NCBI RefSeq assembly: GCF_026571515.1
Contig: NW_026860290.1
Coordinates: forward strand, 124,001 to 188,000
Length of the DNA: 64,000 nt
DNA from: Ruditapes philippinarum
Taxonomy: Eukaryota
Reading direction: 5' to 3'
The translations under genes were made by a program, and so were the position numbers. The notes beneath the pieces were generated by a model. The model searched no databases, was not told the origin of the DNA, and saw only the letters and a list, made by a program, of their open reading frames with translations. Positions 172 to 46,400 of this stretch are shown here, piece after piece (position 1 is the first letter of the stretch; every line of letters starts with the position of its first letter).

Positions 172-1218
172 TGGAGAAGAACCCGATGGTGATAGCACCC
201 AGTGCAGCACATCTAGCAACAATGGTAACGGAATTTCAAATGATAGTGTTGAAATGAGGTATGTATTTATATTTATATGTATGGTCATGATCTTGATATG
301 TGTTTGTTGTTTTTGTTATTGTTTATTTATTTATTTATTTATCTATTTATTCATATACCGACACACCTATCCATTGAACTACCCAGCCACTTACCTCTCA
401 TTTATTGATTTATTTACATTATAATAAACTTTATTATCAGTTTCACATGATAACAAAAAATAATGTTTGAAAAATATTGACAAGTTATACGTTTGAATCA
501 GTTATTTGGATCAATAACAGTAACACATAAAACATGGTTTCATCAGTCAAACAATAGATGAACATAATTCAACTTTATCAACCCTTTGAAGTGGTAACAG
601 AGATAATTTATAAAACATAGCAAGCCAAACCAAAGAAAAGCATATTAAGTTGATAAATAGATTTGTCTTCAATGAAGAAAGGCATAAAAATGTGACAATG
701 TTTATCCTCTATTTTCAACGCATTTATGAAATTTTCATAATTATAACTATTTTAGGCTTAGTAACATGATGTTTTTATAAGATGGGAAAATTGAAAATCA
801 ATTATATTGTTGGGTATATTGTTTTCCCGGTGTGAATCACTTCTGTATTTTCATGCCATATGGGCGTTTTTCCGAAGAGAAAGTTCGGGGGAAAAAGTAA
901 GACACACAAAAGGCACCGTTTGTTGTGTTTTCGCCATTCCTCATCTTGAAAATAGACAGAAAGAAGGAAAAGTGTGACTACTTAGTTTTCGTTTTTGTAC
1001 TTGCAGGGCGGAGAGTGTAAAGTAGGAAAACATGAAAATGTGAAGATTCGTTGTGTTTTCGACTTTACAACTTTTCGACCCAATAGAACTTCCTCCCTGC
1101 CTAAAAAAAAACAAACAAATGAAAACATGCTTGTTTGGCATGTCATAAATATGTCATCGTCAACTTTTGATGCATTTTTTTCCATAGCAAATAATTGTTT
1201 CGTTTTAAAGAATATGAG

Positions 1219-1260
<42 letters not shown>

Positions 1261-4200
1261 TATATGCCTCAAATCAGTTGATAACAAATTTTAATAAGAG
1301 GTTCGATTCGACGTAAGTGTTCTTACATGTATGTTTGGACTTTCAATATAAGCTCGTCGGGAATCATTTGATGCAAAACATGTGTATTCTGTATAAGAAC
1401 GTTTACTTGTGCCAAAATATTTAAACAGTGAAAAAGGTTTTATCAAATAATGTGGTGTTACTTCGTTCGTTAATTTATCGAGTACATTTTGGTTCAACCG
1501 TAATTTTATCGTTATAATTTTGTTTTCTCCCTTACTAATCATGTCATTTCAGAACTTTAAACGCAGGACTGAGTGCTCCGGTTGAGACGAGTCGTCAACC
1601 TATGGATGACTATCATGGTGCTTGCAATAAGTAAGTTACGATATAAATTGTTTATTTTCAAAATAGCTTCATTTTATAGTTTCATGGACTTTAGTTATAA
1701 TAACATGTAAGTAATTAACCCAGTATTCATTTCCATAGTCGTAGCAAATGACAGGCTCACATATAGGAGAAATACACTAAAAGTTTTTTGACTATTGTAA
1801 TATTGTTTTCTGCTAGCAATGTTATCAATTATTCACAGAGAGGTAAAAGGAGACCAACAACAAAATTTGTAGATTATTGCACAATATAAGTCACTTTTAT
1901 GGATTTATTTGAAAATAATTTCAAATGGCGAGCATGGCGATCGAAAGTGTGAGCCCTGATTTATACATGTACAAGTATTAATGATTCAGATAGAATGGCA
2001 AACATCAACATCAATATTATTTATTTTTTCTTATTATAAAATAAATTAAATGTAAAATGATACGGGCATATATAATATATACTCTAATCACCTATTAGAT
2101 TTCTTTCTACTTGTAAGATAATAAATATTTTATTAAATTAATATGTGTTACGAACTCGTCACCATTAAATAATCTTCGGTAAACATGCGTTCTCGTTACT
2201 TATACACTTCATCGTCGGAACTCACAGGTATTAATTTGAGTGATTTCGCTGAACTATCAAGTGCATAGGTAACGAATATGTATGGGTTACCAAGGATGTA
2301 GTTCAGCTAAATCAGTACTTGTGAGCTCTGACGATGCATAAAATATCCTTTATCTCCCATTAATGTCAAACCCCTCGTGGGGACGTAGACATGACTTTAG
2401 ACTAGTCACTTCAGAGAAAGATATGAGGTACAAGGGAATCCCGGAACCAGTCCCTTACTCTTATTGAATTGACCCCTTGGTTCTTTTACATGCCCAGTGT
2501 ATAGCACTGATACATGCGAGGGTTACCTTGATTTCTTAACAGTACACAGCATGTGGTCTAACCAACTGAGCTATCGCGCCACCTTGTCCACTCCTGACTT
2601 GAGTTAATCCCGGGGCTCGAAATGAAAGCTAGACTTGTATACCATTAGACCTTTAAAAATTTAATTCACTTTGAAATGCGAACGTAATATAAAGTGATTT
2701 ACAGTATCTATATGCTGTCATGACGTCAATGTTTTGATTTGTTTTCAGTGAAAACCCGTCTAGTGAAATATAGCCAAGGTAACTTGTATCGTATTATTTT
2801 AGGTTTCAACAAATTCTTATTCACCTCCCGAAAAACTATGTAATCAGTGTTTTATAAACTATGTCATAAGTTTATAAACAAAAATATACATGTATAATTA
2901 TTATTCTCGTACTTGCCAGTTTAATCACAAAGCGACTTTGTTTATATGATATACAGCTTAATTCTTGCACATACAACCTTTCAAGTCTGTTTCTTCTAAA
3001 AATAATGTCTACAATTAAATTTCAAACTCAAAAGTGTATTAATGTTTACTGTATTCAATCAGAATTATTTAAACTGATATTATTTTACTGTTGGTCGACT
3101 TGATTGGGCTACTCCAGGTACTTTTTCTGAACCTTTTTTTATCTTCTAAATTCAATAAGTTGAAATTGTAAAGCTTCTAAAAGTAAGACATTTTAGCATG
3201 CCTTAGTAAACCAGTATGTCTGTGTCCATCAATAGGTGAGCACAGTTTCAACGCGCTTTATTTAAGTTTCAAAATCATCACCTGAGCAAGTGCTGCTTAA
3301 TTCATCATAAAAAGCCAATGTATTACAACTATTATTGTCCGTGGAAACAGCTGGTTTGACTCTTATTTATTCTATTGACTGACCGGCTGTATGCAATTAA
3401 TCGGAATTATGTAATTACTATGTAATAGCCCTAAATCATACTGAAGTGTCTTCGAAATGAAGTTGCTTCATACATAAATACTCCACTGGACAACGTTAAC
3501 TGTAGAATTAAAGTGACACCATGCTCATTTTTTCATTGTCAAGTTGAGCTTAATAAACAATATACATATATATTTCAAAAGATTGACTGTTATAATGGTG
3601 ATTACCCAACAGTTGATATTTGAAAATATTTAGGATAAAATTATTATTTAAATATGCATCTGCCTAAAATACAAAAAGACTACTTTTTTACTGCATGTAA
3701 ATTTCCATGGAAATTTGTAGAGATTAGTATTTTACTTTCACCTCTTTACTCACTACATATATTTGGATGGATATATGTCACTATCAAAATAACCCCTTTT
3801 TTAAAAAAAAAAGATAAAACAGATCTGATAATAACGTCGAACATTGCTTTAACATACCTCGGTAGTATACTCATTTCAATGATTAATTTCCTCATCAAGT
3901 GTTGTTATTCAAATATAAAGTATTATATATTTCAAATAAACATGTAATATGATTTTCTCACGGGTATCAAATTAGCGTTTCTGTTCTGCTTTAATACAGT
4001 ACTAACTTGCTATCATTTAACATACACGTTATTAATCATGATTGACCTAAGATATGAAATGAGATCATGACATTGTTAATGAACATAATTATTATGTGTT
4101 CATTTGTTTATAAAAAAATTTCTAAGAATTACTGTTAGGTACAGTAATTCAAAATTTTCATTCCAAATTTCAGCATATTTGACCATGAACTTATTTTATT

Positions 4201-4664
4201 TAGCTTTTTTTATTAAAAAAAAACACTTTCATTATGGAAGGTAATAACAAACCATCAAAAAATTTGAATGGATGATTTTGTTACGTATGCGATAAATATA
4301 TACCATGATATGACATGCCTTTATATAGCAAATAGTACAATTCATATAAATATCCATTCTTAACCTCTAAATTTCAATCAACATATGTTTTCAAGAAATA
4401 CTTGATGAGAATATCCTAATGACGCCTTTATATTGTTTGTTTTAACATTTTTCTATGGAAAATGTTCCTTTTGTAGACCAATTTACTCTATCATTTATTT
4501 AATTTTTGTTTATCAACAGTCCCATTTACAAAGATGCGAGTGCTAATCCGGTGGCGTATACAGATGCGAGTGGTGCTTATATTATTTTAGAGACCAATTT
4601 AGATAAACCACCGTTATCACCACCACCAGTATACAAGAAAAATCCGAAAAATGCATGGGAATAA
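172..4664 (+). CDS. 3' (cytoplasmic-tail) exons of the inverted paralog of the minus-strand Sushi/HYR/GCC receptor; 5' part lies left of the window
   Basis: AG/GT-bounded phase-2 exons 172-258 (GEEPDGDSTQCSTSSNNGNGISNDSVEM) and 1553-1630 (TLNAGLSAPVETSRQPMDDYHGACN), and terminal exon 4520-4664 (PIYKDASANPVAYTDASGAYIILETNLDKPPLSPPPVYKKNPKNAWE*). Optional exon 2749-2778. They align in reverse complement with exons 31385-31477, 29989-30066, 24127-24262 and 29360-29386. Frames are open and exon length differences are multiples of 3. Confidence 0.8.
2345..2580 (-). mobile_element. tRNA-derived SINE, internally deleted (Meta-SINE-like core), left arm only
   Basis: Minus strand begins ggcgcgatagctcagttggttaga (tRNA/A-box head). 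Core tcttttacatgcccagtgtatagcactgatac resembles the SINE at 53005-53288. Absent at the matching right-arm site (~29537). Confidence 0.6.
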
Positions 4665-5459
4665 CATCTGTATCCGATAAACGTTTAGCAAAGTACTCAC
4701 TGTTTATTCGAGCACCTACATGATCGTACCGGAAGTACTAGAAGTCAACTTCTATATCAATTTTGAATGCATAGAAGACATTCAGTGATATTTTGATAAC
4801 TCTGTGATATTTAAATTTATGTTGTTAATGTTAAATTTTATTTTGTTATTTTACATATTCTGGACAAACGTGATACTGATTTCTTACTAGTACATACATG
4901 TACACATTTTATCATAAAAGCAGTATATAAATTAAATGTCATCACTTTTTCATAAATTGTTCGTTTACAAATGCTAATTATCATATGTTTTAAATATGTA
5001 TTTATATATTTTTATATTTTTGTTGGTATCTTAACAATATTACATGTACTAACATACTAGTAAAGTAAGTTATACTACAAGCAGAAAAATAGTGCCCCTG
5101 TTACTAAATGTGTACAATGTATATTTTACTTCTAATGCTATATTATAACATATTGGATTTTTGTGAACCAAGCTTAATATTTGACTATTTAAAGGCTGCG
5201 CATTTATTATTTGTAAAAAACATGCATGTTATCTACAAAATTTTTTTACAATTTGTATGTGTCTATATATTGTTCACTGATAGTTAGCTTGACTATACGA
5301 AGTTTTTTTAGATCACATTCAATTCAGTGTCGTCGTTCGTTAAAGATTATTTTGCATGAAACGATATCTAACTATATTGTCTTTCTTACGTAACGAATGT
5401 ACTTCAAACATAAAAGTGTGCCTCTTACCATCACAAACATCAAATACTAGAATTATCCA

Positions 5460-24126: not shown

Positions 24127-27100
24127 TTATTCCCATGCATTTTTCTTGTATACTGTTTGTGGTGATAACGGTGGTTTATCTAAATTGGTCTCTAAAATAA
24201 TATAAGCACCACTTGCATCTGTATACGCCACCGGATCAGCACGCGCATTTGTGTAAATTGGACTGTTGATAAACAAAAATAAATAAATGATAGACTAAAT
24301 TGGTCTACAAAAGGAACATTTTCCATGGAAAAATGTTAAAACAAACAATATAAAGGCGACATTAGGATATTTTCATCAAGTATGTCTTGAAAGAAAAATG
24401 TTGATTGAATTTTAAGTGGTTAAGAATGGATATTTATATGAATTTGTTATTACGTATGATACTCAATACTGTCACGGATGTAATATAAATCCGTAATACT
24501 GTCAACATAATTATTATATGAAATACCTTCCATAATGAAAGTGTCTGTTTTAAAAGCTGAAATTTGGAATGAAAACGTTGAATGACTGTGCCTAACAGTA
24601 ATTCTAAGTTTATATTTTATAAACATATTTTCATGTTCATTAACAATGTCATGATCTCATTTCATATCTTAGTTCAATCGTGATTAATTAGGTAATAGTT
24701 ATAGTATATAAAACGAGTTAGTTACAGGGTATAACACTGGCTGGGGCGACATCAAGGGGTGTTTCTGCTAAAAAATGGCGAGGCCGTCAGGCCGAGACAA
24801 TTTTTTTGCAGAAACATCCCGATTTTATGTTGTTTTTTTTTGCTACTGGGAATGGTCGTTACCACTGCCCCATTGGAGCCTCTATGAAAAAACTGTATTG
24901 ATATATACAAGGTGCGAAAAAAACTCGACCGATATATAACAGTCGAGTTTTTTTCCTATATGAATCAATGAAAAAACTGTACTGTTATATATCAATACAG
25001 TTTTGAAATGCTCATTGAAGTGTACTGAGTATAATGGGTTAGAAAGAACAAAGAAAAAGCTCACAGCCATGCGATAAATGCATGTTATATGATAGCATTA
25101 AGCTGTGTAGTTAGTAGTCACTTTTATTCTACAGTTGACATTGTCCAGTGGAGTAAGTTTATGTAAGAAGCAACTTCATTTCGAAGACAATTCAGTAAGA
25201 TTTAGGAGCAAACTGAAATGGGCTACTACATAGTAATTATATAATTCCGATAACTTGGCTCAAGCCGGTCAGTGAATAAAATAAATTAATGACTTATTCA
25301 TAAATAGTGGCGCCGGATGTAAAGTGTACCAGTGTTTGGATAGTAATTGGGTTGTGGATAGTTATGATATTTCTCCAGTTTCTTTTGGTAATCTAACGCT
25401 TTACTCCAATTTCATAAATCTTAACAACAGTGCAGCCGAGAGGAAGTCACAATCAGTATATTCAATTAATAATAGAAACAGTTTCCTGTCCATTTGTTTG
25501 CTACTGTGTGGGGATGTTCACCCTTGTCCAGGTCATGAAAATTGTAAGTGATTCAAAACTCTTGACAACCAGTACAACGTTTTTAATAATCGTGGACTCC
25601 TTTTTATACATGTGAATGTAAGAAGTTTACTTCCTTAGTTAGAGGATATTCGTATTCTAGCACATAAATCCAGTGCAGCATGCATAGGTATATCGGAATC
25701 ATGGCTAGATGTATCTGTTTTTGATTCGAAAATTCAAATCCAGAATTATAGTATCATTCGTCGTGACCGAGACAGGCATGGTGACGGAGTTTGCCTTTAC
25801 ATTCGTAGTGACTTAACTTTTAACACTAGAAGCGATCTACAACACGAGAAGCTAGAAGCGACGTGGGCGGAAATCCTTCTTCCTAAAGCTAGACCGATTC
25901 TTGTGGGCATTATTTATCGACCTCCAAAACAGTTGGACTTTATTGGCATTCTTGAAGACTTGTGCAATAGTTCTCCTCATTTTATTGAACATGAAACACT
26001 TATTTTAGGTGATTTTAACATTGATGTTTATAAACAAAGAAATAGGCCAGTGTGTGTTTTATCTTCTGCTTTTAGTACTTTTCTTAATATGTTTCATTTT
26101 AAACATTTATTTAATAAACACACCAGGGTGTGTCATACATCGTCTTCTACTATAGATCTTATTATTGTGTCTGACATAGACAAAATTTCTCAGTCAGGAG
26201 TCTTAAGTACATGTTTTAATGATCATTTTACTATCTATTGTACAGGAAAAGTTACTAAAAATTATGTTGGCAAGCATAACACTATCAAAGCACGTTCAAT
26301 GAAAAATTATAATAATAAGGATGATTTCCAGAAATCTTTACTTGCAGTTGACTGGTCTCCTGTATTATTATGTGACTGTGTATCTGAAGCTTGGAAACTT
26401 TTTAAATCTATTTTTCTAGCTAACTGTTGTTGATTACATTGCTCCTGTTAGGGAAATGCGTATTAAACAACGTACTGAAACATGGATTAGTCCAGAAATT
26501 TTTCAATGTTTAAATGATAGAGATAAAGCTTTTCATTTGTATAGAAAGAATAAAACTGATGAAAATTTTGAGAATTTTAAAACATATAGAAATAGAGCTA
26601 ATGAACTTATTTTTATGGCGAAAAAGAACCATTTTAATAATTCATGTGACAATCATAAAAATGATTCAAAGACCTTATGGAAATCCCTTAAGGAGCTTGG
26701 TCTACCATCTTAAAAGGATAATTCATCTTCTAAGAATAATATTGGATTAAAAATATGTGATGAAATTTGTTTTGATAAACAAAAGGTTGCTGAAGAATTC
26801 AACAATTTTTACTGTAATGTTGCATCAAATCTTACTCCAAAACTATCTCCAGCATTAAACATTTTTGGTAAACAGTTTGTATCTTCTTTTTATTTATCAA
26901 AAAGAATTATAATAATTTTTCTTTTTCATTGATGTCTGAAAAAAGTGTAATAAAGTATTTGAATAACAAATCCACTGGTCTGGATGGTATTCCTTCACGT
27001 TTTGTAAGAGATAGTGCATCTATTATTGCCTTTCCTTTAACAAACATTATAAATTTGTCATTGATACAAGGCACAGTACCAGATGATTTGAAGGCAGCAA

Positions 27101-30100
27101 GAATTGTTCCTCTTTTCAAAAAGAATGATAAAACTGAAGTTGGCAACTACAGGCCTGTTTCCATAGTAAGCATTGTTTCTAAAATTTTTGAAAGGGTTGT
27201 TTATGATCAGATTTATTCCTATCTTAAAGAAATGGACATATTATATAAATTTCAATCAGGATTTAGAGGTGGTTTTTCCACTGACACTTGTCTTACACAT
27301 CTATCTGATTTTATTAGGCTACATATGGATAAAGGTAATCTTGTAGGCATGATTTTAATGGATCTTCAAAAAGCATTTGATACAGTGTACCACTCAATCC
27401 TTTTAATGAAATTAGAAGCCATTGGACTAAGTACTGATGATTTACAATGGTTTAGGTCATATCTGTCTGATAGGCAACAACTTGTTGATGTATCTGGTAC
27501 TTTTTCCTCACATGAAAGGGTTACTTGTGGTGTTCCCAAAGGGTCTATCTTGGGACCATTATTATTTTTAATTTATGTAAATGATATGCAGGCTGTTGTT
27601 AAAAATAAACTTCTTCTTTATGCAGATGATTCTGCTATTCTTGTTACAGGTAAAAATAGGTCATCTATTGAAAAAGAACTGACAGATGAACTACATTCTG
27701 TCAGTCAATGGTTAATTGACAATAAACTTTCCCTTCACTTAGGCAAAACAGAGACAACATTATTTGGTTCTAAACATAGGTAAAAAACAGGTTCATCACT
27801 TCATGTCAGTTGTAAAGGGACTGATATACAGTCAATTTCTAATGTCAAATATCTAGGTGCAACACTTGATCAGTCTCTCTCCTGTGAAGCAATGGCAAGT
27901 TCTATTATTAAAAAGGCCAATGCAAGGTTAAAGTTTCTGTATAGAAAACGTGATCATCTCACATTTCACACTAAAAAACTTCTGGTTATCGCCCTCATCC
28001 AATGTCATTTTGATTATGCATGTTGTTTCTGGTTTCCCGGGGTTACTAAATACTGGAAGGATAAACTCCAAGTCACACAAAATAGATTAATAAGATTTGT
28101 TCTAAATCTTGGTTATAAGTCACATATTGATAATGAACACTTTAAAATTTTAAATTGGCTACCTGTCCAGAAAAGAGTTGATCAAATCATCCTATGTCAT
28201 GTTTTTAAAATAAAACATGGACTTGCCCCGGAATATATGGAGAAAACTTTATTCCATTAGATTCTGTTCATACTTACAGGACCAGGTCAAGTGAAAGTTG
28301 GTGTTATATGCTACCTAAGGTCAAAGGTTTCGGATCAAAGTCTTTTGTTTACAATGGATGTGTATTGTGGAATAAACTACCCTCTTCTATTAGGATGGAA
28401 TCAAAATTGTACAATTTTAAATTATCTGTTAAAAAACATTTACTAAATGGGTAATTTTCTCTTTTAAAGGTGTCTATCCTCTAGTCTTAATATTTATTAT
28501 TTTTATTAATTTATTTTAATTTGAAACTTTTATGTATACTATTGTCTTTCTTCAATTTAAAACTGTGATAAGTCATTTTCATGCATCTCTTTGTCAAAAC
28601 CATCAGTATCTAAGGACCACAATGGAAATAAGAGATTAAGTTCTCTTTCTTGTGTTATCCTTGGTATGATGTTTTTGTTATGGTGCATTTCTTTTACATT
28701 GATATTTGTTTTTATTGTTTTATCATGTATTGGATATGTTTTTACCATGTTATTACTGAATACTGAAATAAATCTATCTATCTATCTAGAGTAAACCAGC
28801 TGTTTCCACGTACGAAAATAGTTGTAATCCATTGCCTTTTTACGATGAATCTAGCAGCACTTGTTCAGATGGTGATTTTGAAACTTTAATAAAGCGCGTT
28901 GAAACTGTGCTCACCTATTGATGGACACAGACATACTTGTTTACTAAGGCATGCTAAAATGTCTTACTTGTAGTAGCTTTACAATTTCAACTTATTGAAT
29001 TTAGAAGATAAAAAAAATTCAGAAAAAAGTACCTGGAGTAGCCCAATCAAGTTCGACCAACAGTAAAAATTTATCAGTTTGAATAATTCTGATTGAATAT
29101 AATAAACATTAATACACTTTTGAGTATGGAATTTAATTATAGACATTATTTTTAGAAGTAACAGGCTTGAAAGGTTGTATATGTAAGAATATAGCTGTAT
29201 AACATATAAACAAAGTCAATGGGTGATTAAACTGGCAAGTATGATAATTATATTCCTTGTTTATAAGCTTATTGCATAGATTATCAAACACTGATTACAT
29301 AGTTTTTCGGGAGGGGAATAAGAATTTGGTGAAACCTAAAATGATAAGTTACAAGTTACTTTGGCTATATTTCAAACATATTTTCACTGAAAACAAATCA
29401 AAACATTGACGTCACATTATATAGATATGTGATTTCAAAGTGAATTAAACTTGTTAAGGTCGTTCATCATAGGTCTATTAGTATACACGTCTAGCTTTCA
29501 ATTCGAGCCCCGGGATTTAATCAAGTCGGGTGAGGACATTTTATGATGGAACTCACGAGTAAAATATTCATTATCTTGTTGGTGGAAGGAAATATAACAG
29601 TACGTTAGTGTATATATTTCATATGCTCTTTTCATTTTACATTTCAGTTATTTTATTATATACTTAAATATAAATACTGTTGATGTTGACGTGTCGCAAT
29701 AGTCGTCATTGTAAATCATTTTGTAAAACTGGCAAATATTGTGCAATTAACTACAAATTTTGTTGTTGTGGTTTTCCTGTTTGTGAATATTTGATAATAT
29801 TGCCAGTGGAAAACAATATAAAAATATTCAAAACACTTTTAGTGTATTTCTCCTATGTGAGCCCTGTCATATGCTACGACTATGGAAATGACAACTGGGT
29901 TAATTACTTACAATTTATTATTACTAAAGTACATGAAATCACAAAATGAAGCTATTTTGTATTTAAAACAATTTATATGTAAACTTACTTATTGTAAGCA
30001 CCATGATAGTCATCCAAATGTTGACGCCTCCTCTCAACCGAGGCATTTAGTTCTTCTTCAAAAGTTCTGAAATGGCATGATTAGTAAGGGAGAAAACAAT

Positions 30101-33100
30101 ATTATGACGAAAAATCACGGTTTAACCAAAAACGGTATGGGTATTTGATAAACTTAGAAACGACGTAATGTGCATCTTATATGATAAAACTTTTTTCATT
30201 AAATTGTACATACAGTAAAGTTAAAATATTTAAGCGCAATTAAACGTGTCTAGACTTGTGTTCTTATACAGCTCAAATATGTTTTGAATTACATAATTCC
30301 CGACGAGCTTATATTTTAAGTTAATACATTAATGTAAGAATACTTACGTCGGACGAAACTTTTTATTGGCATTAGTAACCGCATTGTCGTGATGTGTGTT
30401 GTACATGGTGTTATAAGCATAGGCTGGCTCCACGTTACTGCGGAAAACAAGTGTTACAATTTTTTTCTATTGCTGTGTTATTTCGAGGCATATACAGGGC
30501 TTTTTTTTGTTTTAACTCTCATTTTCTTTAATACGAAACAATTATTAGCTTTGGAAAATACTGCATCGAAAGTTGATGATGGCATACTTATGGCATGTCA
30601 AATGAGCGTGGTTTTCATTTTTGTGTTTGTTTTTTAAGCAGGGAGGTAGTTGGTCGAAAAGTTGTAAGGTCGAAAACACAACAAGTTTTTTTTACCTTTT
30701 TCTGTTTCCGTACTTTCAACTCTTATAGTAATAAATTTCAAGAAGTGAAAGGGCGAAAACACAACAAACAGTGCTTTTGGTATGTTTATCCCCCCCGCCC
30801 AATTTCGCCCATGTGGCACGAATATACTACTATGGAAGTTATTCACATTTGGAAAACAATATATCCTAGAATATAATTAAGTGATTTGGCCTTGTTTTTA
30901 ATATTCCCATATATTCATATAAATTAACGTTCACAATTTACGAAAGTAAGCCTAAATTTACTATTATGAAATATTATAAATGCGTTGAATATAGGAAAAT
31001 AAAATATTGTCACATTTTTATGCCTTTCTTTATTGAATACAGATCTACCTATTAACTAAAAACATTCAGGTACGCTTTTTTTGGTTTTGCTTCCTATGTC
31101 TTCTACGTTATATTTCTCTGTTACCACCAAAGTTTGATAAAGATGAAATATGTACAACTATGCTTTGACTGATGAAAACATATTTGTTGTTGTTTAAAAT
31201 AACAGATACAAATGTTTGGCAAACACTATTTTTTGATAAGATTAAGTTTAATAATGTAAATAAATAAAAAAATAAATAAATGAGTGGATGGGTGGCTGGG
31301 TAATAAATAAGTAAATAAATAAATAAATCAAACACAAAACAACAAACATATTGTAAGATCATGACAGTACATATAAAAGCATACCTCATTTGAAACCTTT
31401 CATTTGAATTTACGTTACCAATGTTGTTAGATGTGTTATACTGGTTGTTATGACCATCGGGTTGTACTCCACTCCCCCTGGAAAATATTTAGATTATTAT
31501 TTGTCGAAATAGCACTCAAAGACAAGATGTTTTTAGCAGACCCAGCAAAATAAATCTAAGACATCATATTGAACTTGAGAAAACACTATAAATCAAAGAC
31601 AATATTTGTAGCAAAGGCAATATTATGAATGAAAGACAAAGCTATTATACCAGAAACTACACGTTTAATCAAAAAGCAACATTACTGTACCAACAAGATA
31701 TTGTACCAGAGGAAACACTATAAATAAAAAACAACATGTTGTAGCAAAAACTACACTACTATAAATCAAAGAAAATATATTGTATTAGCATCATATTATA
31801 AAAAGGCAAAATTATAAAACCAATGCAGCATATTGTACCTAGGACAACACTGTTATTATCGAAGGTTACATCTGAAGCAGGAAAAGCAATATTGTAAATC
31901 AAAGATAACATAATGTACCAGAAACAACACTACAAAACAAATAAAACATATTGTACCAGAGACATTTCTATAAATGAAAAACACGTTGCACAAGAAACAG
32001 CGCCATGAATGAAAGGCGACAAATTGAAGATAAGACAGCACTATTAAACAAAGGCAACATATCTTAGCAGAGACTACAGTTAAACTCAAAGGGAACATTA
32101 TTGTACCAGACACATCACTATGGATAAAAAGTAACATACTGTACCAGAGACAACACAAGAAATGAAAGGCAACATATTGAGGATGTGACAACACTATTTA
32201 TCAAAGGCAACATATTGTACTAGAGAAAACACCATAATGTATAAAGCAAAGGCAACACATTGAACCAGAGGCAACACTATGAATATTGAAGACAGTATAC
32301 AGTAGAAAAGACAACACTATCAATCGAAGGCAAAATATTTAATCAAAGGCAACATATTGTACGAGAGAAAACATTTTTCATCAAAGCAACATATAGTGAC
32401 AAACACTATAAATCAGAGGCAGCATATTGTATCAGAAACAGCACTTTAAATAAAAGGCAACATATTGTATCAGAAACAACACTTTAAATAAAATGCAACA
32501 TATTGTATCAGAAACAGCCCTTTAAATAAAAGGCAACATATTGTATCAGAAACAACACTTTAAATAAAAGGCAATATATTGTACAAGAGACAAAACTATA
32601 AATCAAAGGCAACACATTGTACCAAATACAACATCATTTAATCAAAGACACCATATTGAAACAGAGACAACGCTATCAGTTGAAGCGTAAATATTAAATC
32701 AAAAGCATCATATTGTACTAGACACAACACTATATTTTAAAGGCATACTATTGTGAAAGGGACAACAGTTTAAATTGAAGGATACATATATTAGAGGAGA
32801 CAGAACTATAAATAAAAGGCAACAAATAAAATAAAATGATTTAAAAAGTTTAAGTTCCACAATAGCTATTTGGCATGTCATCTCGTTATTTGCATACTTT
32901 ACATTAGCTTAAATGCTTTGAATAATTAAGTCTTATTGAAATTACATGGTAGACAATGGAACATTTTGTCTTAGCTTCTAACATTACCCCAAATATTTTA
33001 TATTACATTGCTTTTATTTCTTAAAAGCTTTATATTTTGGTACCTTGTTACAGTTTCCTAACAGTTACTGATTAACTATATCGCTGAACCATTATCTGTT

Positions 33101-36100
33101 TCTTTTGCATTTAGGAAATAAATACAATAATAGTGATTTAGTATTTCACATGTAAGTATAAAATCAACACTTTATTAACGTTTGTCTTCTTTTACGAGAC
33201 ATTATTTCACATTCATCAATAGTTTCATTAAACGATATTCGTTAAATATGATCTAAATGCATAATCCATACTGCCCTTCCTTATGAAATAAAAAAATCGT
33301 GAGTGTAAATGTGCCTTTGATGGCACAGGCTTTTAAGGCCTAGACAATTCTAAAATTATACACTACCTTTTCTTTAACCGGTAAACAATTCCTACAACTG
33401 CCAGAATTATAAAGAAAGTTCCAACCACAATAATGATTATGTACAGAATCAAATTTATTGTGGTGTCTTCCTCGGGTTTCTCAACTGTAAACACAATTAT
33501 AAGACAGTATATATACTTACAATAACTTATAACTAATCAAACTTATTTTCATAGTGAAATTGTACTACATGTATAAAACGTTTCATGACTAACCGATTCG
33601 TCATTCCCATAGTTAGCATTATGGTTCATGTACATCATAATAGGTTCACTGTGTACATTATAAATGGTTCGAGATGTGTATCATAAAAGACCAATTGTGT
33701 ACATCATAAATGTTCATGGTGTACATCATAAATGGTTCGAGGTGTATATCATAAAAGATCCATGATGTACATCATAAAAGATTCATAGTATGTATCATAA
33801 AAGGTTCATTGTGTACATAATTAAAGATACATGGTGTAAATCATAAATGTTCAGTGTGAACATCGTTATACACGTAACAACATAAAATATTTTCATTTGA
33901 AAGAGCTTGATTTGTAAGAATATATGAAAATTGAAATAGCAGCTTATGCATCTTGACCAGCTGTCCGATAATTCATAGTCTTCATGGATTTTTTTGACAT
34001 GATCGTGTTATGCAATAATCTATAAAAATAGTTATTTTAAAAATGCCGGACTAACAACCACAGACAGGGGGCGCAGCTTAGTCTTGACTGATAGACACAC
34101 GTCTAGGTGGTGGGTGATGGCACACACACACCCATGACTTTTTTATTTTTGGATATGTTAAATGCAATAAACACGGTCAGGTGATTATTAGAAATTAATA
34201 TAGACATAAATTTATTTTTACTTTATTAGAAAAAAGTGTTGACCGTGGCTTGCGCGGCTTTTTAGGAAACTAGGCTTCTCTCTTCTAGGACAAGTTGTAG
34301 CTGTATTATCATCTTTATTTTTGTCATTGTCGATATAATTATTATATTATTATCCAATCTTGTCTGTTACATAGCATAAAATAGAATACAAATCTTTGAG
34401 CCCCTTGTCCCTTTTCAACCATTAGTTTACTTTATAAAAACATACATATACTGTATATACAAGCTATAAGGAAGACCGTCAGTTTTGGCAATTTCATCAT
34501 TGAACTTACCATTGCAATGTATGCTGTCTCTAGACATAAGTCCGGCAGTGGTCCAGCCATCAGGACATTTCTTGCACGAGGGCTGTGCTTCCTCGTCCTG
34601 GTAGTAGCCTCGAGGGCAGCTCTCACAGTAGTCGTTAGTGGCATATGTTCCCTTACCACACGATACTAGAGGTCAACAAGTGTAAAAATAAAATCTCAGT
34701 TAAAATCTTTTCTTTTTTTGTAGAAATGAAAAGTTCTTTACCATTTGGCTTACTTGGGTAACCCATGCAGAGCAACCCTCTGAGGAGAAATAATCTGTTT
34801 TGAAAAAATATTATAAATTATCAATGAATTAAATCTTCTGGAGCCTCTCAGAAACAAGCAAAATCTGTGTCTTTCAATCAAGGGAAATTGGTAAGTAGAA
34901 GTTGTATATTTATTTTAATCAAATATGTTAAAATTACGACATATCTATATATTTATCACGATGTTTTTGTCAATTGTTCATGTCTGATTTATTCACCATG
35001 CCTAAGTCTAAATGGAAATGATCTATTTGTGAAAATTTGTGATTAGCTCTAATCATCTATACAATGTGTTCATTTCTAAATGTGAATACCCAAGTTATCA
35101 CATAATTTTGAAGTAGACCTAGGCCTAAAATAAAATAGTTTGTTTCCACTCTCCAACCCCCCCCCCCGACACCTACCCATAAAAATCACTGCTACCTTTT
35201 TATTGCCAAACAAAACAAATTCTTTTATTTTATTATCATGCAAGTAAAGCCAACCTGTCAATATTATTCACATCTTTATATCTGTCTCATGTTGTTGTTG
35301 TTTTTTTTCATTTTAAATATTGCAGACTTATATTGAATACAACTTTGAAACTTTGGTTTTATACTTTTAATAAGTAAATGCTATTAAGCATTCATATTCT
35401 TAAAAAAAAGATATATATCTAATTCAGATATAGATCTAAGTACAATTTGGTTCAATACAAAAAAAATAGTTCGGACAATGCACATACCTACCTACCCTAC
35501 TAAAACTGGAATGCATGCGTCGCGGATAATTTTAAATATGGCCCTATCGTCAAATCGTTCTATTTAAAAATGTTCTTACCACAATACTGCCAGACGGATG
35601 CATATCCAGGCTCGCACTCAGCCAAACCGTCCAGGTACGTACTGTTTACACCAACGTCGTAGTCAACGCCACCATATTGTATAGTGAACGCTAGATTTTC
35701 TACTAATGTGTTAAAAATAGTCACTATCTCAGCCAGGTGGTCATAGCAATTGTCTTTTCCTGAGAGAAAACAAAATTATTTCGTCATTATAACGTCATTA
35801 TACGGAAGCATCCTGGTGCCAAATTAACATGTTCTATAAAAGAGATAACTCCTACGTAGGAAATAAAGAAGTTTTATTAGGAGTTTAAAACTCCTACGTC
35901 ATGTGTAGGTGATACAAACTACTTATTAGGCTTTTTTTATTTCGTATAGGAGTAGAACATGTTAAATGGCACAAGGACGCTTCGGTATCATTACTACATT
36001 ATGTTGAAACTAGGTTCAGAAATATTTCAACAAAGAAGTCCCACACATTTATCTAAAAGGTAGATAGCTGTTATAATCGCGTGTCAAAATCAGACGTATA

Positions 36101-37420
36101 CAGTAATATAAACACCAAGACTGGTAGACTTTTGTGACAACTAAGCATTGACAACAAACAATAAAATTAGTTTTGAGATTCTTTGGTTAACAGGTAAATA
36201 ATGAAGTTCTAAGACAAGATGGCAGGAAACATGACATAAATACAGTTGCTTTCCAAATAGGAATTTCTCAATTACAGGCAGTGATATTTATTTCTATACA
36301 CGTTTGTATCATATGCGAACCACAATTTTTATTGACATTGAAAAACACATGAATTTTTGTAAAATACTGTCTGCTTTGATAAAGCATTTGATTTTACTCG
36401 TACAAGTCAAAACGTTTTTTTTTTCAGTTTGTAAGAATGGAAAATCTGCAGGAATATTGTCTTAAGTAATATATCCTATTTTGAACTGTGTCTTATTGCC
36501 AAATTTATTACATATCTTCCTGTATTTCTAAAATGTAATGTTTTTCAGGTATGGACCACATTAACGAAATCATACAAACTTGTTTAATACTTTCAAACAT
36601 ATTTAAACTTTGCAATACATGTAATAGTAATATTATATTTTCTTGTTTCACCAACAAACGCCAATAACAAATTTAAAAAATAAATAAATTTAAAATTGAA
36701 CAAATATCACCTATAGTATTGTCACATGTTAGCTCTATAGTAAATGATACAAAGCTTGTCTCCCTTCGTTTCCTCTCTTCTGATTGGTCAGTTGAAGACG
36801 AAATGTGAACGCCCTTTAATTCGCATGTTCCGTTGGCAACACAACCAGCTGTTTTCAGTTTGTCGCCTTACAGTCGACTTTATGGTGTTTTCAACATCAG
36901 AAGTTTCAGTACTCAACGTATTGTACACACCTGTTTGATTTACCGACAGTTTTGGAGCCAGGTGCTTTGCTACAAGTATAAAATTATGTATATTGCCCCT
37001 ATTTGTCTTTATAATGAATTTCCAAAAGCAATTGTTACTTCGACAAGAAGGGAATGAGTATATCGTTTGTTTGTTTTTGTATTATTTTTTTTTTTGAAAA
37101 AGGGAAGGAAAAAGAAAAGAAAAGAATCTATGAATTTCTATACCAATATTACTTTGTGTGCCAATTCGTTTCGTTGATTTCAAGGATTAACCTTTTTTAT
37201 TGTGCAAAATGACCTATAAATAGTAACCGTTTAAGACACGCACTAGTTTATTTCTGTTTTTTTTCTTTAACTGTTCCATATCTTAAGTTATGCAATATTT
37301 CCAATTTTCAGACCTATGTCTTTAGACTTTGGACTTCATAGGAACCCTGCTTAGCATAGTTCATACATTTTGAATTTTATAATATCAATTATGTCTGTGC
37401 ATACTCATTAATTAATTAAT

Positions 37421-37471
<51 letters not shown>

Positions 37472-40400
37472 TTGTTATCAAATTTCTATATTTTAAATAG
37501 ATGCAAACATATGTTTGGAACTAAGTCAACAGTATAGAATTGATTACTGTCCAAGTTTTCTTAAGTTTCGAACTTATTATATAATAATAATATTAATAAG
37601 TGAATTGGTCTATAATGGATCGTCTTTTATACATTAGATAATTACGCTGATAATTTTTAGTATTAGACATAACAAGAAACCATAAACAATTAATATGTGC
37701 GTTGTTGAAAAATATGAGAGAAAGAACTGTCTTCAAAGGATAAGGCGTATGATATATAATGTTATAACGTTAATGCAACCGAAATTATAAATAACAAGAA
37801 GTATCTTTAAACGGAAGTAAAGCTGGTTTACATGCAAAATTATGTTATTTATAAGTGTTCAATACATAAAGAAATGCTTGCATAATAATGACATAATAAT
37901 CATTTCTTGTAGCACACAAATAACCATTTTGTAAACATTGAAATGAAATTATAGCATATTGATATTGATGATTTTTCAAAGTAGGACAACTTCTATTTAA
38001 GGTGTCCCTTTTACTTGTTTTACGTTTGACTTAATAAATTTTGTAATCATTTACAAATTAACCTAAAAGTTAAAGAACTATACTCATTCCTGTACATTTT
38101 ATTTTAGAACTATCCTTTACATTTCAATTTTATAGTGGCAAAACTATCCCTCACATTTTATCTTAGAATGGTAAGAACTATCCTTTACATTTTATTTTAG
38201 GATAACCAATGTGATTCACCGACTTCAATTTGTAATTTTAAAATGACCAATGGAAATCCTTCTCATATTCAGTCCTTCCCTGTTAATTTTACTCGAAGTC
38301 AAACTGATAACAGATGGACTTCGTCCGAAAATATATTAGTAAACGTTGACAAGAAGGAATCTGTGATTTGGGATTATCCTCGTTATTTATATTCCAAACA
38401 TATCCGGTGTCTGGCCCGCAGACGATACCGGAAGAGTTAATATAGAGGTCGCTGTCAAATTCGTAACCATCGTTGCACGTGGGCCTGCAAACACGTTTCT
38501 CGTCATTTTCTGATACACAGTTCATGTTTCCATTATCTAGTGTCGTTGGGTCCTTTCCACATTCTTAAAATATAAATTTTTAAGGGCATTTATTTCTTTA
38601 ATTTGTTAGATAATATAAACAAAATCTAAAATAATTGTTTTCCAACATCTTACCCACGACAGAAAATATTAAAATTAATATATTCAATAAAATATAGTAT
38701 TACATATCCACACAACTTAAATATGTTTTTTAGTCCGCCTGATAAATTCTGTAGGTTTCATAGGTTGAGCACATGACCCTTGTCAGGACACGTGATTTTC
38801 TGTGTCAATTTCATTGACAGAATTTCTACTACCACAGATTGATGTGGTGAAGTCGGTACTGGTAGTGAGGCCGAGATAACTCGTTATGTTTGCCTTCTTT
38901 ATATGATCCTAGATTATATACTAGTAATCAAAACATCGATGTCTAATTCATTGTATCCATTGTTGATTGTATGTTCCACTTTACAATTATTTTATAGAAC
39001 CTTAAATTATGTTGTATAACGAACGAACAAACGAACGATCGAGCAAACGCACAGACGGACAAACGAATGAACGAGAAAAAAGGAAGTTAACTCCGAATGA
39101 AACAATTCAAATTGTATTACCATTTATGCAAACAACGTTGGTTTCGCAGGGGACTGTTTTTGTACTATCGCCTTCACACTGTTTCCCGCCATTTATTGGG
39201 ATGGGGTTTTCACAGACACGTGACATCTGCTGCGTTCCAGATCCACATGTGACGGAACATTCACCACTTATCTCATAATCTGTCCAACCACCGTCAACTG
39301 AAAACAGTTACTAAAGCATAAAAATGTAAAAGACTGACAAACACGTGTCGTCTGCTATATTTCAGTCAACTGGACCATGTATTTTGAATATTTGTTAATA
39401 AAATAAATCAGCGTACCATACTCGCACTATGTAAAGAGTAAAAATAAATTTAAACCTCTAAATAGATTGGTGTTTGTGAAGTCAGCATTTATTTCATTGC
39501 TGAGCGGACACACCACCTCAGAGACAGTCAAACCTTGAAAAAAGACCACCGAAAAGAGAGGCCGAACAATGTCTTTTTAGACAAATGGTCTTATTTATGG
39601 TGGTATTTATTTGGAAGTGGTCTTTAACACTGGTTTCTGGATTTATTTTATTAATGTTGACTAACAACCATTTATATATGCATAACAATTGAACAAGTGC
39701 AATCTTTGATAGATCGGTAAACAAACTATTCAAAGGAATGTTACTTTTTATACAATTAACATATTCACATTTCTTTTTTATATCTAAGTAAAGCAAATAG
39801 ATATTCGATGTCCTATCTTTTCTAACTCATTACAAACACAAGAGAAAGCTGAATACTAACCAAAGTGGGTTTCACATAAGTCACCCTTAAAGCCAGCCGG
39901 ACAAACACAACTATATTTATCCTGTCCATCAATGCATGTAGCGTTGTTATCACACGCGTTGTCAAGGCAGTCATCGATATTGATCTCACAGAAACTTCCG
40001 GTAAAACCTCTTGCGCATGCGCATGAAAAGCCTCCAATAGAATCACTGCAGGAACCTCCGTTATGGCATGATGTATTATCACAGTTGTTGTCGACTTAAA
40101 GAAGAACATAGAGCTAAATCATGGATGCTATGTTCAAAGCTAAATATGTTATTGGTGTTTAGTTTTTTAAAAAGCAGGAAATAAAAATCGTTACGTACGT
40201 AATGTGACGTAAGATACAAAAAATGTCAGTATGGTTATGAGAAAAAATAATAATAACGAAAATTCTAATGTCAAAGAATTTGACTCCGTTCATAGACCGA
40301 TTAATCTAACTATTGGCTTCAAGACATGCAGTACAGAAAAAAATACAGTAGAAAATGTGAAAACCGGACCCTTTTCGGGTTCGTCCACAATCCTGTTTTC

Positions 40401-43400
40401 AGAGAATATTTAATACATGCTAAGCAAATACAGCCGTAGTGGTTCCGGTATTTAAAGGATGTTTTTTTCCGATGAATGTATTAAGGAAAATATGGGACTT
40501 CTAAACTATCGTCCGATTTTCAAAGAATTTCGGTTTTCATATGATCCGATTTACATAGGTTTTACAGTACTTCTCATTATACTCGGATATGCTATGATGA
40601 CATAAACAAAAAGGATATCGATTGTAACCTTACCATCACATTTGCTTTTTGTTATGATAAAGGATCCTTCAGTATCAGAGAACTGTTTCCAACTTATCAA
40701 ATCACCCTGACCTGTGTTAAAACACGTATCTGTTACAACTGGTGTAAATGATGTGACATCTGACCATATGTTCAACTGTGAAAATGAACCGATAAACCCT
40801 TCACCTGGAAAAAAAATATCTCTATATATATATATATATATAATTTTATTAAGTTAAAATTCGTCATGACAAAAAAAAACAACAAAACAAACATATTAAG
40901 TTTTCATAGTTTTCATTGAAAAATTTTGTAGTTGTTTTGTGACATCAAGTTGAACAATTTTTCAGTTATATGGTAACAGCTTGGAACTAACCGTCGGGTA
41001 ACCCTTTTACCTACTAACAGCAATTGAATCTATCCGTACGACCAGTGCAGACTAAGATAACCCGTGATATCTGATCATGGTCTGCACTGTTCAATATTCT
41101 TCCAATATATATATTTTCATTAAACATTTTGAAAATTTCCCTAACAGGATGAATGATATTGTCCGGCAAGTCAATTTAAGTCTACGCCTAACCTGGGTTA
41201 CACAAATCTAAAGTACAATTCAAAAGTTGCAGGAACTCGCAAAATTCCCTTATTACATTGCAGAAAAATTTAGCGAATCTATTTTTCGTGATATTCATTG
41301 CACGCGAATATAGCGAAGATTGATACCAGCGAAAATACCTGATATACGGTATTTAGTATGGTGGAGGTAAACATTTTTATAATATACTTATAAATGAAAT
41401 ATTGAAAAATATTGATGAAATAAAATGCCTTTTTCATCATCCGTATTTTGATATTCACTGTAAAAAAAGTATTTTTCACTGCAGTGAAACATTATTTTCC
41501 GTATTTTCACTTGTGCCTTGCCGGACTACTTTCTTCTAAATTCAGCCAATACATAAAATTAAAAGGGTATTCCTCCTTTTCATGAGATGAAAAAAGAGAA
41601 AACGTAAATAGAATATTCAAGTTGTTTTCTGTTAATACAGGATTTATTTTCATCTTATGGCTACTGCCACTCGTGAACTATTTATTTTCATACCACACGA
41701 TAAAAATAAATCCTGTATTTATAGAAGAAACTTCAGTATCCTCTACTTATTTTCACACATGTGTACATACTTGTTTGTGCACTATCCTTACCTCCTATTG
41801 TCACAGTGATATTCACAGGTGTTTCTGTGGACCTTTTTCTTCTTTGAGGAGACACTTGCTCTCTGAGAACTTCTGTACTGTCCAGGTATGTAATTATCTC
41901 AGTGCCAGAATACATGACTGTAATCTGCTTCCACATCATTGACCCGACTATACTCTCTCCAGTCGTGAACTGCTGTCTTTATTTCCAGAATATGAAAGTA
42001 TATTTAAAGTCCTATTAAAGGGTAATGAAATATTTAACGAAACGTTAAAGACCCATTATGTGTTCATTTTAATTTCTCTAAATCCTTTATATTTTTGCGC
42101 GATTTGTAAACCGTTTGATTATGGTCTGAACCAATAAATTGTGTGCAAATTTCCAGAGCTCGCCCAGGTTGTCCAGAATAATCATTTTTATTGTGAAAAA
42201 GATCCCAAAATGAAAAGCGTTGCAACGCTTATCATTACAGTCAGAGAAAAAAATGTACTATCAATCTAAATTTAATTTGAGTATATTTCTTTATGGTGTT
42301 TTGCAGTTTTTTCCCATTGCAATTAAAAAAAAATATTTTTTTGGTTCTTGCTCTTTTGGCTTTTTGACCTCTGTGGAGTTCCTTTAAGTCAGACTGTTGT
42401 TTAACATGAATTGCCGGCAAATGAGTGAAATAATATACTTATCCTACTGAGACAGCAGCTTTACTTTGCTAGGGAACACTTAATTTTGTTACCTTATATA
42501 AAAAACTTGTTAAAATTTTCTCCAAGTATGTGAAGCACAATGCTTTGAAAACCATGTGAATTTGCATTGTTTGAATCTTTTTTACTATAAATTTCGCAGG
42601 TTGTATACCAAATCAATTGTATTTTACGTTCAGAAAAGGATCGAATCAAATGTTATAAAACATCACTTTTTGCCTCCTCTGACTATGTTAAAACCGATAT
42701 AAAAATAAATAACTCACCCATTATAACCGACAACTATCATGTCGGAGTGGCTGATAGAAAGGTCTGTACTATCAGTGTCTGCTAGGGTTATCAAAGTGTC
42801 ACATTGAGTACACTTTACAAAGAATGTCAAGGTGAATTTACTAAGACTATCAACTTGTGTTTCGAGGGAACCCGGCGCTAGTTCTTCAGACTCGTTCAGT
42901 TGAGTGTACGTAATATCGAACTCTGAAATACAATATAATAATGTTAAATGGGAAGAAATTTTACCATTTCCCCTTGTTTGTTTCGTAATGAAAGCCTAAA
43001 TTTTATTTCTTTTAATCTTTTTCGTTGCTTTGGTACTAAGAAATACAAGTTTTCTTTATATATTCTGAGGATATAAAACAACATTATAGAAGCACATAAA
43101 TCACGTGTTTCTCCAGATGTTTTAGGCTAGTTGAATCTTTTATCGTAAAGAAGTGAAACAAGTTCCAACAGCCCTAGCGGATTGATTTTAAGAAACATCA
43201 TTTATAGAACTTTAATTCTATTACAGCAGCTGACATCATTTAAAAAAAATTCATCCTTTATTCTTAAAGTTACCCGGAAGTCACTTCATACCTTTGCATT
43301 GAGACCCGGATATTGACCCAGATTTAAGTGTAATTTGTGATCCCTGGCACTCTGTACATCCTACGCTTCCATAGTTTTCATTGTAGGATCCAAGGTCGCA

Positions 43401-46400
43401 AGCTGAGCAGGGCGGGGTACCAGTTGCAGAGTAGAAGCCAGGTTCACAAGCGTCTGAAAAAGTGGTAGCATTTTAGTCACGTTTTCTGATGATGTATTTA
43501 CAAAAGATATATTATATATATGCAAAAATTGTGAAAGTAGTTCCTCATACAAATTGATATTTTGACAAATGTGTTGACATTTCAGCTCCTTATTCTACCA
43601 GTGTTAGATACAGAAGATACAAAAGTACATGTATGTACAGTTTTGAATACTTGTTCGCGAATAATATAGCTGAAAACATTCAGGTAAATAAAAAAATATG
43701 TTCTTACATATTCCCGAGTTAAACCTTAAGTTTTATCCCCCAAAACGATATTTTATTTCTTAAAAGCTTTATATTTTCGTTGTTCTGTAACAGTGTTAGT
43801 AACAATATTCATTGACCGTTTAGCTGAACCATTATCATTTAATATTTTGTTTGGTTTGTCTTACTTTGCTTACGTTTTGCTACTTTTATTATGAAATATT
43901 TATCATTTCGCCTTCGCTTCGTTCACATGATAAGCATATAACATGCTCTAAATTCATTATAATTATAATCTTATGAATCAGAGTTGCCTTTTTCTTCAAT
44001 TTAAAAGTCCTTTTAGAAACAAATCATTACTTGAAGGTAAAATTCTGACATAGTCAGCAAATACACTACCTTCACACTGAGCTGCAGAGTTAGCTCCCGT
44101 AGTTTTGGTGGTTTTGCCGGTAGGACATTGCTTGCACGTGCTTTGTTTAGGCTCATCTTGATAGAAACCACGTGCGCATGCGCTGCAGGTGTTACCATCT
44201 ATGTCGTGGAAATATCCGACGCTACACTTAACTGAAAAAATGCACAGCATCAATTACTGGTAAACAATAAAAAAACACTTTTTGGCCGTATTTACAAAAT
44301 GACAAATTATAGAATAAGAATACCTATGAAGTCTTTTGGCGAAATAATGAGTATCTTTCATTACAGGCACACTAAGTCTCGGAAATAATTATGTTTATGT
44401 TCGTATCAAGAGAAAACATATGTTTATTTGTGTGCTAGTATTTAGGACATGTTCGGAGCTGATATAGCACCTAATGTCAATCAATTATTATAAACATAAC
44501 AGAATGCAAACAAATTGATATTTTGACTTCCATACAAAATATTTAGTCTATATTACTGCTCTGATTTCCAATACACAAAAGAATCTAAATTGAATTGGGC
44601 TACATGGCCAATTAGTACATATGTTTTGCTAAATTGTAACATAACACGAAAGTTAAAAAGACGAAAGGTCATTTACCACACTGCATTGTTGCTCTGTCAT
44701 AAGCACTTCCGGTTGAACATTCGCCCTCGATATGAGAAACGCTGGTTGTCGGGGACTCGGCCGAGAAGCCATCAATTTCCAAATTGTAGTCACCGTTCTC
44801 GGTAGCCTTAGAAACGGAATTCTTAATAGAATTTCTAGTAATTGCCTTTTCCGTCGCTGACAAGTCGTTTGAGAGTTCTACTGTCACTGTGAACGTAATT
44901 GTCGGGTCAGTGCTTTTTCGTTTTCTGCTTGAATCCCCAATTCTGTTTCCGCAAATGATCTGTCATTGATAATTTCATTAATTTAATAATGATTATGTTA
45001 ACGTAATTGACATTTTACGTTAAATTTATGCATTTTTCTTAACTTGTTTGAAAATTGGAAATGATTAAGTCAAGGATTTAACAAAAGCTGTCACAGGAGA
45101 AGTGCGCCCCATTTTTTCACACCTTTCTTTGTGGTGGAATAAATAAATAAATTAATAAATATATAAATAAATAAATAAATAAATAAATAAAATAAAACTT
45201 AAAATAAATAAATAAATAAATAAAAGTAAAGCTAAAATTAATAATTAGATAAAAAAATAAATAAAACTTTAATAAATAAATTAATAAANNNNNNNNNNNN
45301 NNNNNNNNNNNNNNNNNNNNNNNNNNNNNNNNNNNNNNNNNNNNNNNNNNNNNNNNNNNNNNNNNNNNNNNNNNNNNNNNNNNNNNNNNNNNNNNNNNNN
45401 NNNNNNNNNNNNNNNNNNNNNNNNNNNNNNNNNNNNNNNNNNNNNNNNNNNNNNNNNNNNNNNNNNNNNNGACAGAGCATTTTGGTTTACAGTCTTGTCC
45501 AGTGCCTTTATTGAACGCTTCAATGAACTTATTTTTTATATCTTCTCTAGCCTCGTCACAAGGTCCATCATAGTAATAGTACTCAAACTCGAGTTTTAAG
45601 ATAGTCAATAATCTTTCATTATCAACCTCTGTTTAAATAAATACAAAAATTTGTTTATAATGAGACTATTTTTGTTATGTTATACGGCTTCATCAAAGTG
45701 TATCATCTCAAGAAATGTACAATGTCATGATTTTGAATACTCAGCCATGCTTTTTCAGCATATCAGAAAAGTCTACAGGGTACTCAAAGGTTTTAGCTAA
45801 TTTATACAACAATATCAAAATTTATTGATTGTTATTGTGGTTAATGCAACATTTTTGTGTATAAACACATTCAGAAGCATGAGAACGCATCTAAAGCCTT
45901 TAAATGCGTTCTGATGCTTTTGCGGATATTTATTCAAAAAAATAATGTGCATTTAAACTGTTCTTGTAAATAAAAATGTCCTTCTGGCGAAAGCACTGTA
46001 TCTAGAAAGCACTGTTTGTGCTCCACGTGCTAGTGCGATGCCATTTGACAGGTATGTTTAAAAAATGAACTGAATTGGCCGTCATTGCATCGAAGCTGTT
46101 ACAACATCGCGCAATGGATCAAGAAAATCAATAACGGTGCAATTACGGCGCGTGACGCGCCACGAGAATCTTTCGGTTCATGCATGTTTTCTTTTCCGTA
46201 AATAAGTTGTCATGACCGCATTACTTCAGTATCTTAAAAAAGGAGTTCTTACTGACTAAATATACGTTTATCATAATCATACAATTAAACTCTAACTCGG
46301 TCTTGACGAAATCTTTTTCTATGTAACAATAAGAGCATCGAAATACGAGGCTATCTGATTTGTACGAGTGCTTTGATGTTCTTTCTCTTTTGTATTATAG

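Follow-up and report, generated by a model that had tools for sequence, protein, structure and literature searches.

Results

Genes and tail exons at the locus

The stretch of DNA analyzed here (the window, 64,000 nucleotides of the clam Ruditapes philippinarum) contains two of three copies of a gene, designated A, B and C. The three genes are young duplicates, and their products are SVEP1-like type I membrane proteins. Copies A and B form an inverted duplicate pair within the window, copy C is located on a separate contig (C2130), and aligned intron blocks of the three copies are about 65-95% identical. The last exon matches three NCBI proteins, XP_060607327.1 (copy A), XP_060607329.1 (copy B) and XP_060580688.1 (copy C), and we rebuilt the exon chains for all three copies. 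The copy B gene runs from ~52414 to 24127 on the minus strand and corresponds, exon for exon, to a Mercenaria protein of 1,460 aa. Pfam searches with the exon ORFs identified HYR, sushi, Ephrin_rec_like, weak LamG, EGF and TSP1 domains in the ectodomain, which is followed by a transmembrane helix and a tail; the same searches gave no match to a vWA domain in the proteins of the copies. The features of the two copies in the window are as follows:

172..258, + strand: first cytoplasmic-tail exon of copy A, 87 nt, phase 2-2 (exon chain of XP_060607327.1; joint 258->1553 in one contig of RNA run X1)
1296..1327, + strand: copy A remnant of a 90-nt tail exon kept by B and C, reduced to the 3' end and donor; it aligns only with the last ~30 nt of the B exon 30437-30348
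1553..1630, + strand: tail exon upstream of the cassette in copy A; it ends AAT AA, where the final AA opens the N codon of NPIY (RNA joint 1630->4520)
4520..4664, + strand: coding part of the last exon of copy A, PIY...KNAWE-stop (exon chain, NCBI protein, RNA depth and joint)
24127..24262, - strand: coding part of the last exon of copy B (exon chain; XP_060607329.1)
29989..30066, - strand: tail exon upstream of the cassette in copy B, ...YHGAYN (exon chain)
30348..30437, - strand: 90-nt in-frame tail exon of copy B, lost in A (exon chain; A/B alignment)
31385..31477, - strand: first tail exon of copy B (exon chain)
33367..33484, - strand: transmembrane exon of copy B (exon chain; hydrophobic stretch in the protein)
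34510..52414, - strand: ectodomain exons of copy B, with a likely signal peptide, HYR, sushi, Ephrin_rec_like, weak LamG, EGF and TSP1 (Pfam; match to the Mercenaria orthologue)

Comparison of copy A (1211-1327, + strand) with copy B (30437-30348, - strand) shows that the acceptor and most of the 90-nt in-frame tail exon are gone in copy A. The loss lies beside a long poly(A) run and only the donor end is left; in copy B the exon is Tyr-rich. The RNA joint 258->1553 bypasses the remnant.

Many 1-bp indels are present in mid-ectodomain exons of copy A, which lie upstream of the window (C8777, about 110300-113900), and copy B shows frame breaks of a single base and a 4-bp loss at a donor (window positions 36853, 51900 and 38349). 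These ectodomain indels are likely due to unpolished assembly, and the NCBI models of 600 and 286 aa would for this reason be fragments of a protein of ~1,450 aa. We rejected the view that A and B are pseudogenes: the indels are single-base or fall in one poorly polished-looking stretch, and the tail of copy A is spliced. Identity between A and B is mostly 89-99% in the intact ectodomain exons and 82-89% in the tail exons, which can be read either as tails that diverge faster or as gene conversion across the ectodomain.

Several other features accompany the duplicated genes. The last intron of copy B carries an insertion of ~3.5 kb (about 25290-28790) that is absent from A and C and that, judged by eye, looks like a plus-strand LINE-type retroelement. 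Degenerate tandem repeat arrays with units of ~35-85 bp, common to the duplicated blocks, occur at 5460-7000, 22530-23350, 31520-32830 and 60910-61260. A Cys-rich exon-like ORF of another gene, with no Pfam match, lies head to head with copy B (63159-63416, + strand).

A stop-containing candidate exon in the last intron

An acceptor and a donor that enclose an in-frame stop are present in the last intron of all three copies:

2719..2748, + strand: pyrimidine tract and acceptor of the cassette in copy A (27 of 28 aligned positions identical in A, B and C; score 12.1)
2749..2778, + strand: candidate stop-containing cassette exon of copy A, 30 nt, ENPSSEI-stop, with TAG at 2771-2773 (splice-signal and pattern analyses)
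2779..2787, + strand: cassette donor of copy A, AAG/GTAACT (score 6.3)
29360..29386, - strand: candidate stop-containing cassette exon of copy B, 27 nt, ENMFEI-stop, with a weaker donor, AAA/GTAACT (score 2.6)
C2130:49484-49510: candidate cassette of copy C, which reads EQNSEL-stop (frame read by hand from the exon ends)

The original prediction, which concerned the two paralogs in the window, was accurate about the element itself. Both keep ttttcAG-(30 or 27 nt)-GTAAC as described (A, 2749-2778; B, 29386-29360 on the minus strand), with TAG 5 nt before the donor (2771-2773 in A; 29367-29365 on the minus strand in B). Spliced to the upstream exon (1553-1630 in A; 30066-29989 in B), the cassette reads ...NNENPSSEI-stop or ...NNENMFEI-stop, and its skipping joins AA/T to give N-P-I-Y, followed by the remainder of a last exon that encodes 47 aa (A) or 44 aa (B). 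A tight form of the pattern occurs exactly three times genome-wide, and a reversed control pattern zero times. The predicted C-terminal ends are SEI (A), FEI (B) and SEL (C), the last codons being Glu and Ile, Ile or Leu. The cassette had also been said to sit exactly where the NPxY motif is spliced together. The intron does indeed split the motif, but there is nothing special about the position: three of the four motif residues are encoded by the last exon, so that any stop cassette in the last intron would remove the motif.

Three other interpretations of the element were considered and set aside. A recursive splice site was rejected, as the AG is followed by TG and not by GT. Stop read-through was considered in view of the exon length, which is divisible by 3, and would restore PNPIY in copy B; copies A and C would instead yield PSPIY. 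Moreover, the CCAAG after the stop needs no read-through, because the donor consensus accounts for it. Neural microexons of the SRRM4/eMIC type are at most 27 nt long, preserve the frame, contain no stop and have UGC just upstream of the acceptor. The cassette is 27-30 nt long with a stop inside, the 30 nt upstream contain no TGC in A, B or C and no TGCATG occurs nearby, and this type was therefore rejected; the missing mark also counts against a used exon.

Splice signals and conservation

The most serious alternative to a functional exon is that the element is silent, i.e., a strong-looking pseudoexon, or an exon once used, that was inherited from one ancestor and is included rarely or never, in which case the protein would always end in the NPIY tail. 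Conservation by itself says little on this point, because the copies are young and their introns are about 65-95% identical; for the same reason, and given their one shared ancestor, the three sightings of the cassette are not independent. We therefore built a weight matrix from the splice sites of these genes, a small and related set of 14 unique donors and 23 acceptors, and scored splice signals with it. The cassette acceptor scores 12.1 versus -0.4 to 8.3 for true acceptors left out of the training, and the donor 6.3 (A and C) or 2.6 (B) versus 2.8-9.4 for left-out true donors. The cassette of copy A ranks first among the 1,765 AG..GT pairs with a spacing of 9-60 nt in the introns of this copy (13.7 kb), a rank that has to be read with the fact that the site was initially picked for its exon-like look. 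In this single-copy scoring the runner-up is close (18.0 versus 18.4), a point in favour of a silent exon. However, when all three copies are scored together, the cassette reaches 14.7 versus 8.9 for the next pair, i.e., 5.8 score units above it; AG and GT are both kept in all three copies in 289 of 680 aligned pairs, among which the cassette is the sole pair that scores like an exon in every copy.

The pattern of conservation within the element points in the same direction. Its acceptor flank is identical in the three copies at 27 of 28 positions (28 of 29 for the best true acceptor), which places it in the top 0.4% of 1,394 windows drawn from the introns on either side. Gene-wide it is only in the top 4%, 220 of 5,419 intron windows being equally conserved, and this suits a silent exon. 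The window that covers the stop and the donor is in the top 0.6% locally, i.e., in the flanking introns. The coding middle of the cassette, on the other hand, is variable (58% three-way identity), and its sole indel is 3 nt long and keeps the frame, whereas among intronic indels 8 of 62 and 13 of 92 have a length divisible by 3. Invariant ends around a variable, frame-preserving middle argue against a silent exon, and give the element what may be the look of a selected cassette exon.

RNA and annotated isoforms

RNA from four of 24 listed runs (X1, X2, X21 and X23) was aligned to window positions 1-5450, which cover copy A only. The skip joint 1630->4520 (GT..AG) was found in three of the four runs: it is supported by four reads in X23, by two contigs with a depth of 25.6 in X1, and by one unbroken 308-nt contig in X2 (0 and 1 mismatches, depth 11). 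Extra letters between joined segments occur in three alignment rows, none of which lies at 1630/4520. A spliced RNA that makes NPIY thus exists, which excludes the case, raised with the original prediction, of 100% inclusion with NPxY never made. The other half of the proposed junction comparison came out differently: none of the 12 joints listed in these four shallow runs touches 2749 or 2778. RNA depth in the bin 2731-2912 is 0 in X1, X2 and X23. In X21 it is 0.26 (about 47-48 letters), an ambiguous signal that could come from a single read that stops at the cassette donor or from a pair of mates of the copy B intron that stop where the copies diverge. Neither this signal nor the small word shares (0.12-0.18) of the remaining runs were counted as evidence. 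As for annotation, the NCBI models of A, B and C are each a one-member cluster without the cassette exon, and a search with the juxtamembrane region found no annotated isoform that contains it.

The lack of inclusion from the RNA of copy A and from the annotated proteins is what a silent exon would predict, and so is the absence of the cassette from the tail introns of a distant paralogue (see below). The RNA test was, however, shallow: joints were listed from 3 reads up, 4-6% of the raw runs were used, and contigs lose rare forms. Weighing this against the three-copy scores and the frame-keeping middle, we consider a silent or vestigial exon unlikely, though with a real chance of being correct.

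In X1, one further contig (depth 15) is 12 nt short in the last exon, at 4586, and matches no assembled copy; it probably derives from another allele or paralogue.

Lineage of the tail and the cassette

The NPxY tail was examined in related proteins. Among 149 of these, 55 have a transmembrane helix after the last Ephrin-like repeat; seven were dropped for tail length and 48 were kept. NPx[YF] is present in one of these 48 family tails. Mercenaria mercenaria has two orthologues, LOC128546131 and LOC123554676, whose ectodomains are 60% identical to those of the clam copies. Their tails are unrelated in sequence to those of the Ruditapes copies, none of their four isoforms contains NPxY, and one of the two genes ends in S-I-L; their annotated tail isoforms X1 and X2 differ by an in-frame deletion, with no stop switch. 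A distant paralogue (C13058:141900-149281) has the same ectodomain and also lacks NPxY. Its tail is unrelated save for the end HNAWKE-stop, which echoes KNAWE-stop of copies A and B, and its tail introns contain no similar cassette (the best unannotated candidate scores 12.0 and has no similarity). Conservation in orthologues, which had been proposed as a check, is thus not found for NPxY. From these comparisons, NPxY and the cassette appear to be recent and restricted to this lineage; tails in the family turn over fast.

A C-terminal NAW, present in 2 of 48 tails, was rejected as a family-wide motif. The last exon and its 3' flank also occur as an orphan copy, 92% identical, at C8777:224973-225911, downstream of a different EGF/TSP1/Ephrin-like gene (about 210-216 kb); it has an internal TAA and a 630-bp insertion. 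We rejected it as a fourth copy (C8777:225035), given this internal stop and insertion and the absence of upstream exons and cassette.

Discussion

A candidate switch of the C-terminus

We regard the cassette as a credible unannotated exon, and we give a probability of roughly one half to the view that the last intron of these young SVEP1-like genes holds a genuine exon, of minor use or limited to certain tissues, which would swap the C-terminus of the protein. A real exon is also favoured by the splicing of tails in this family, as is evident from the X1/X2 tail isoforms of Mercenaria and from the in-frame tail exon lost by copy A. Skipping yields the mRNA observed for copy A, with its NPIY-bearing tail. 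Inclusion, presumably confined to certain cells or stages, would place the end of the protein 7-8 residues past the junction, at S/F-E-I/L. NPIY and the AWE end would then be lost, together with a proline-rich stretch and two more tyrosines. The included mRNA would be expected to escape decay, with its stop 5 nt from the last junction and its 3'UTR longer by ~150 nt.

What the two ends would do can be read only from how well they fit known motifs. The ideal NPxY sorting consensus, a PTB/FERM ligand in a cytosolic tail, is [FY]xNPx[YF]. The context YNNPIY in copies B and C fits it, and copy A has C at the [FY] position; on this motif fit, the NPxY may act as a PTB/FERM sorting signal. PDZ ligands of class I or II end in S/T-x-hydrophobic or hydrophobic-x-hydrophobic, respectively, at a free C-terminus, so that the new end may, again by its fit to the pattern, be a PDZ ligand. 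SEI, FEI and SEL do match class I or II as predicted, but the match is a weak one, since 24% of 630 random intron-encoded C-termini match too (5.4% match class I, and 40% end in V, I, L or F). PDZ anchoring is a possibility rather than a finding, because random ends often fit and the copies share one ancestor. Most likely, then, the main effect of inclusion would be the loss of the NPxY tail, with PDZ binding as a possible extra.

A more specific proposal is that of a recent trafficking switch in the clam lineage of this adhesion-type family, in which an exon of 27-30 nt, included in some tissue or stage, trades an endocytic/recycling NPxY tail for a PDZ anchor. The paralogues would since have varied the ligand so as to engage different scaffolds, with SEI and SEL in class I and FEI in class II, and kept their splice signals fixed. 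We hold this full version to be quite unlikely.

Another proposal concerns dose. Poison-type exons have an in-frame stop, conserved flanks and a scarce included form, a class with which the cassette would be compatible. The included mRNA would then be degraded, or the truncated protein inactive, and inclusion would merely tune dosage; the included form would be scarce at steady state and PDZ binding would play no part. The stop of a poison exon is expected to lie over 50 nt before the last junction, or the 3'UTR to become much longer, but the distance here is 5 nt and the 3'UTR is longer by only about 150 nt, so that neither route of NMD is clearly triggered. It should be noted that invertebrate NMD is described as mainly EJC-independent (PMC7072976), and hence the 50-nt rule cannot be assumed in the clam. 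The Glu and the hydrophobic last residue kept in the three copies also speak against a poison cassette, which we consider very unlikely.

Finally, it is highly improbable that only the acceptor is used, as an alternative last exon in which the transcript runs into the intron and is polyadenylated there, giving the same protein end. In favour of this reading, the acceptor is far stronger than the donor, above all in B, A and B are 88-95% identical over 2931-3330, and there is an ATTAAA at 3014. Against it, A, B and C all retain the donor, identity to copy C is just 59-79% over the stretch conserved between A and B, and the depth at 2731-3458 is zero in the contigs of X1 and X2 and likewise in X23.

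Comparison with known systems

The NCBI name of these genes derives from vertebrate SVEP1/polydom, with which the clam proteins share HYR, sushi, Ephrin_rec_like and EGF domains and a weak LamG match. However, vertebrate SVEP1 is described as a secreted matrix protein, whereas the clam proteins have a transmembrane helix, a tail and TSP1, and no vWA match; the presence of a transmembrane exon and tail and the absence of a vWA match led us to reject membership of SVEP1/polydom. The reach of the present observations is limited by the fact that the protein family has no known function. Full-text searches of openly available papers found no literature on the clam gene, on the exon or on such a switch in this mollusc family.

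The switch proposed for the clam is of a known kind and not a new mechanism. In CD46, exon 13 carries the stop. This penultimate exon (13 of 14) is included or skipped to give two tails, CYT1 and CYT2, and the inclusion tail ends in FTSL, a PDZ ligand that binds DLG4 and GOPC (PMC7972933). CD46 resembles the clam proteins in being a type I membrane protein with sushi/CCP domains. The two are not homologous, however; both isoforms and the binding have been shown for CD46, while only skipping is seen in the clam RNA examined, and the clam exon is 27-30 nt long and its skip tail carries NPxY. In L1CAM, a tiny tail exon (exon 27, the RSLE micro-exon) determines the presence of a tyrosine-based endocytic motif, as outlined in PMC3081839; inclusion is in frame and creates the motif there, whereas in the clam it would stop translation and remove the motif. 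More generally, PDZ-, PTB-, SH2- and WW-binding motifs, NPxY included, are reported to be enriched in alternative exons (PMC3424572), and Latrophilin-3 appears to be a further case of functional splicing (PMC10830413). The suggestion that the locus holds an undescribed regulatory system is therefore not supported, in view of the accounts of CD46 exon 13 (PMC7972933), L1CAM exon 27 (PMC3081839) and general motif enrichment (PMC3424572) just cited.

If inclusion is confirmed, the gene models that lack the exon would need to be corrected, and three paralogues with fixed splice signals and a varying ligand could show how such switches arise and diversify. The clam genes would then be an example, of recent and independent origin in a mollusc, of a tail switch like that of CD46.
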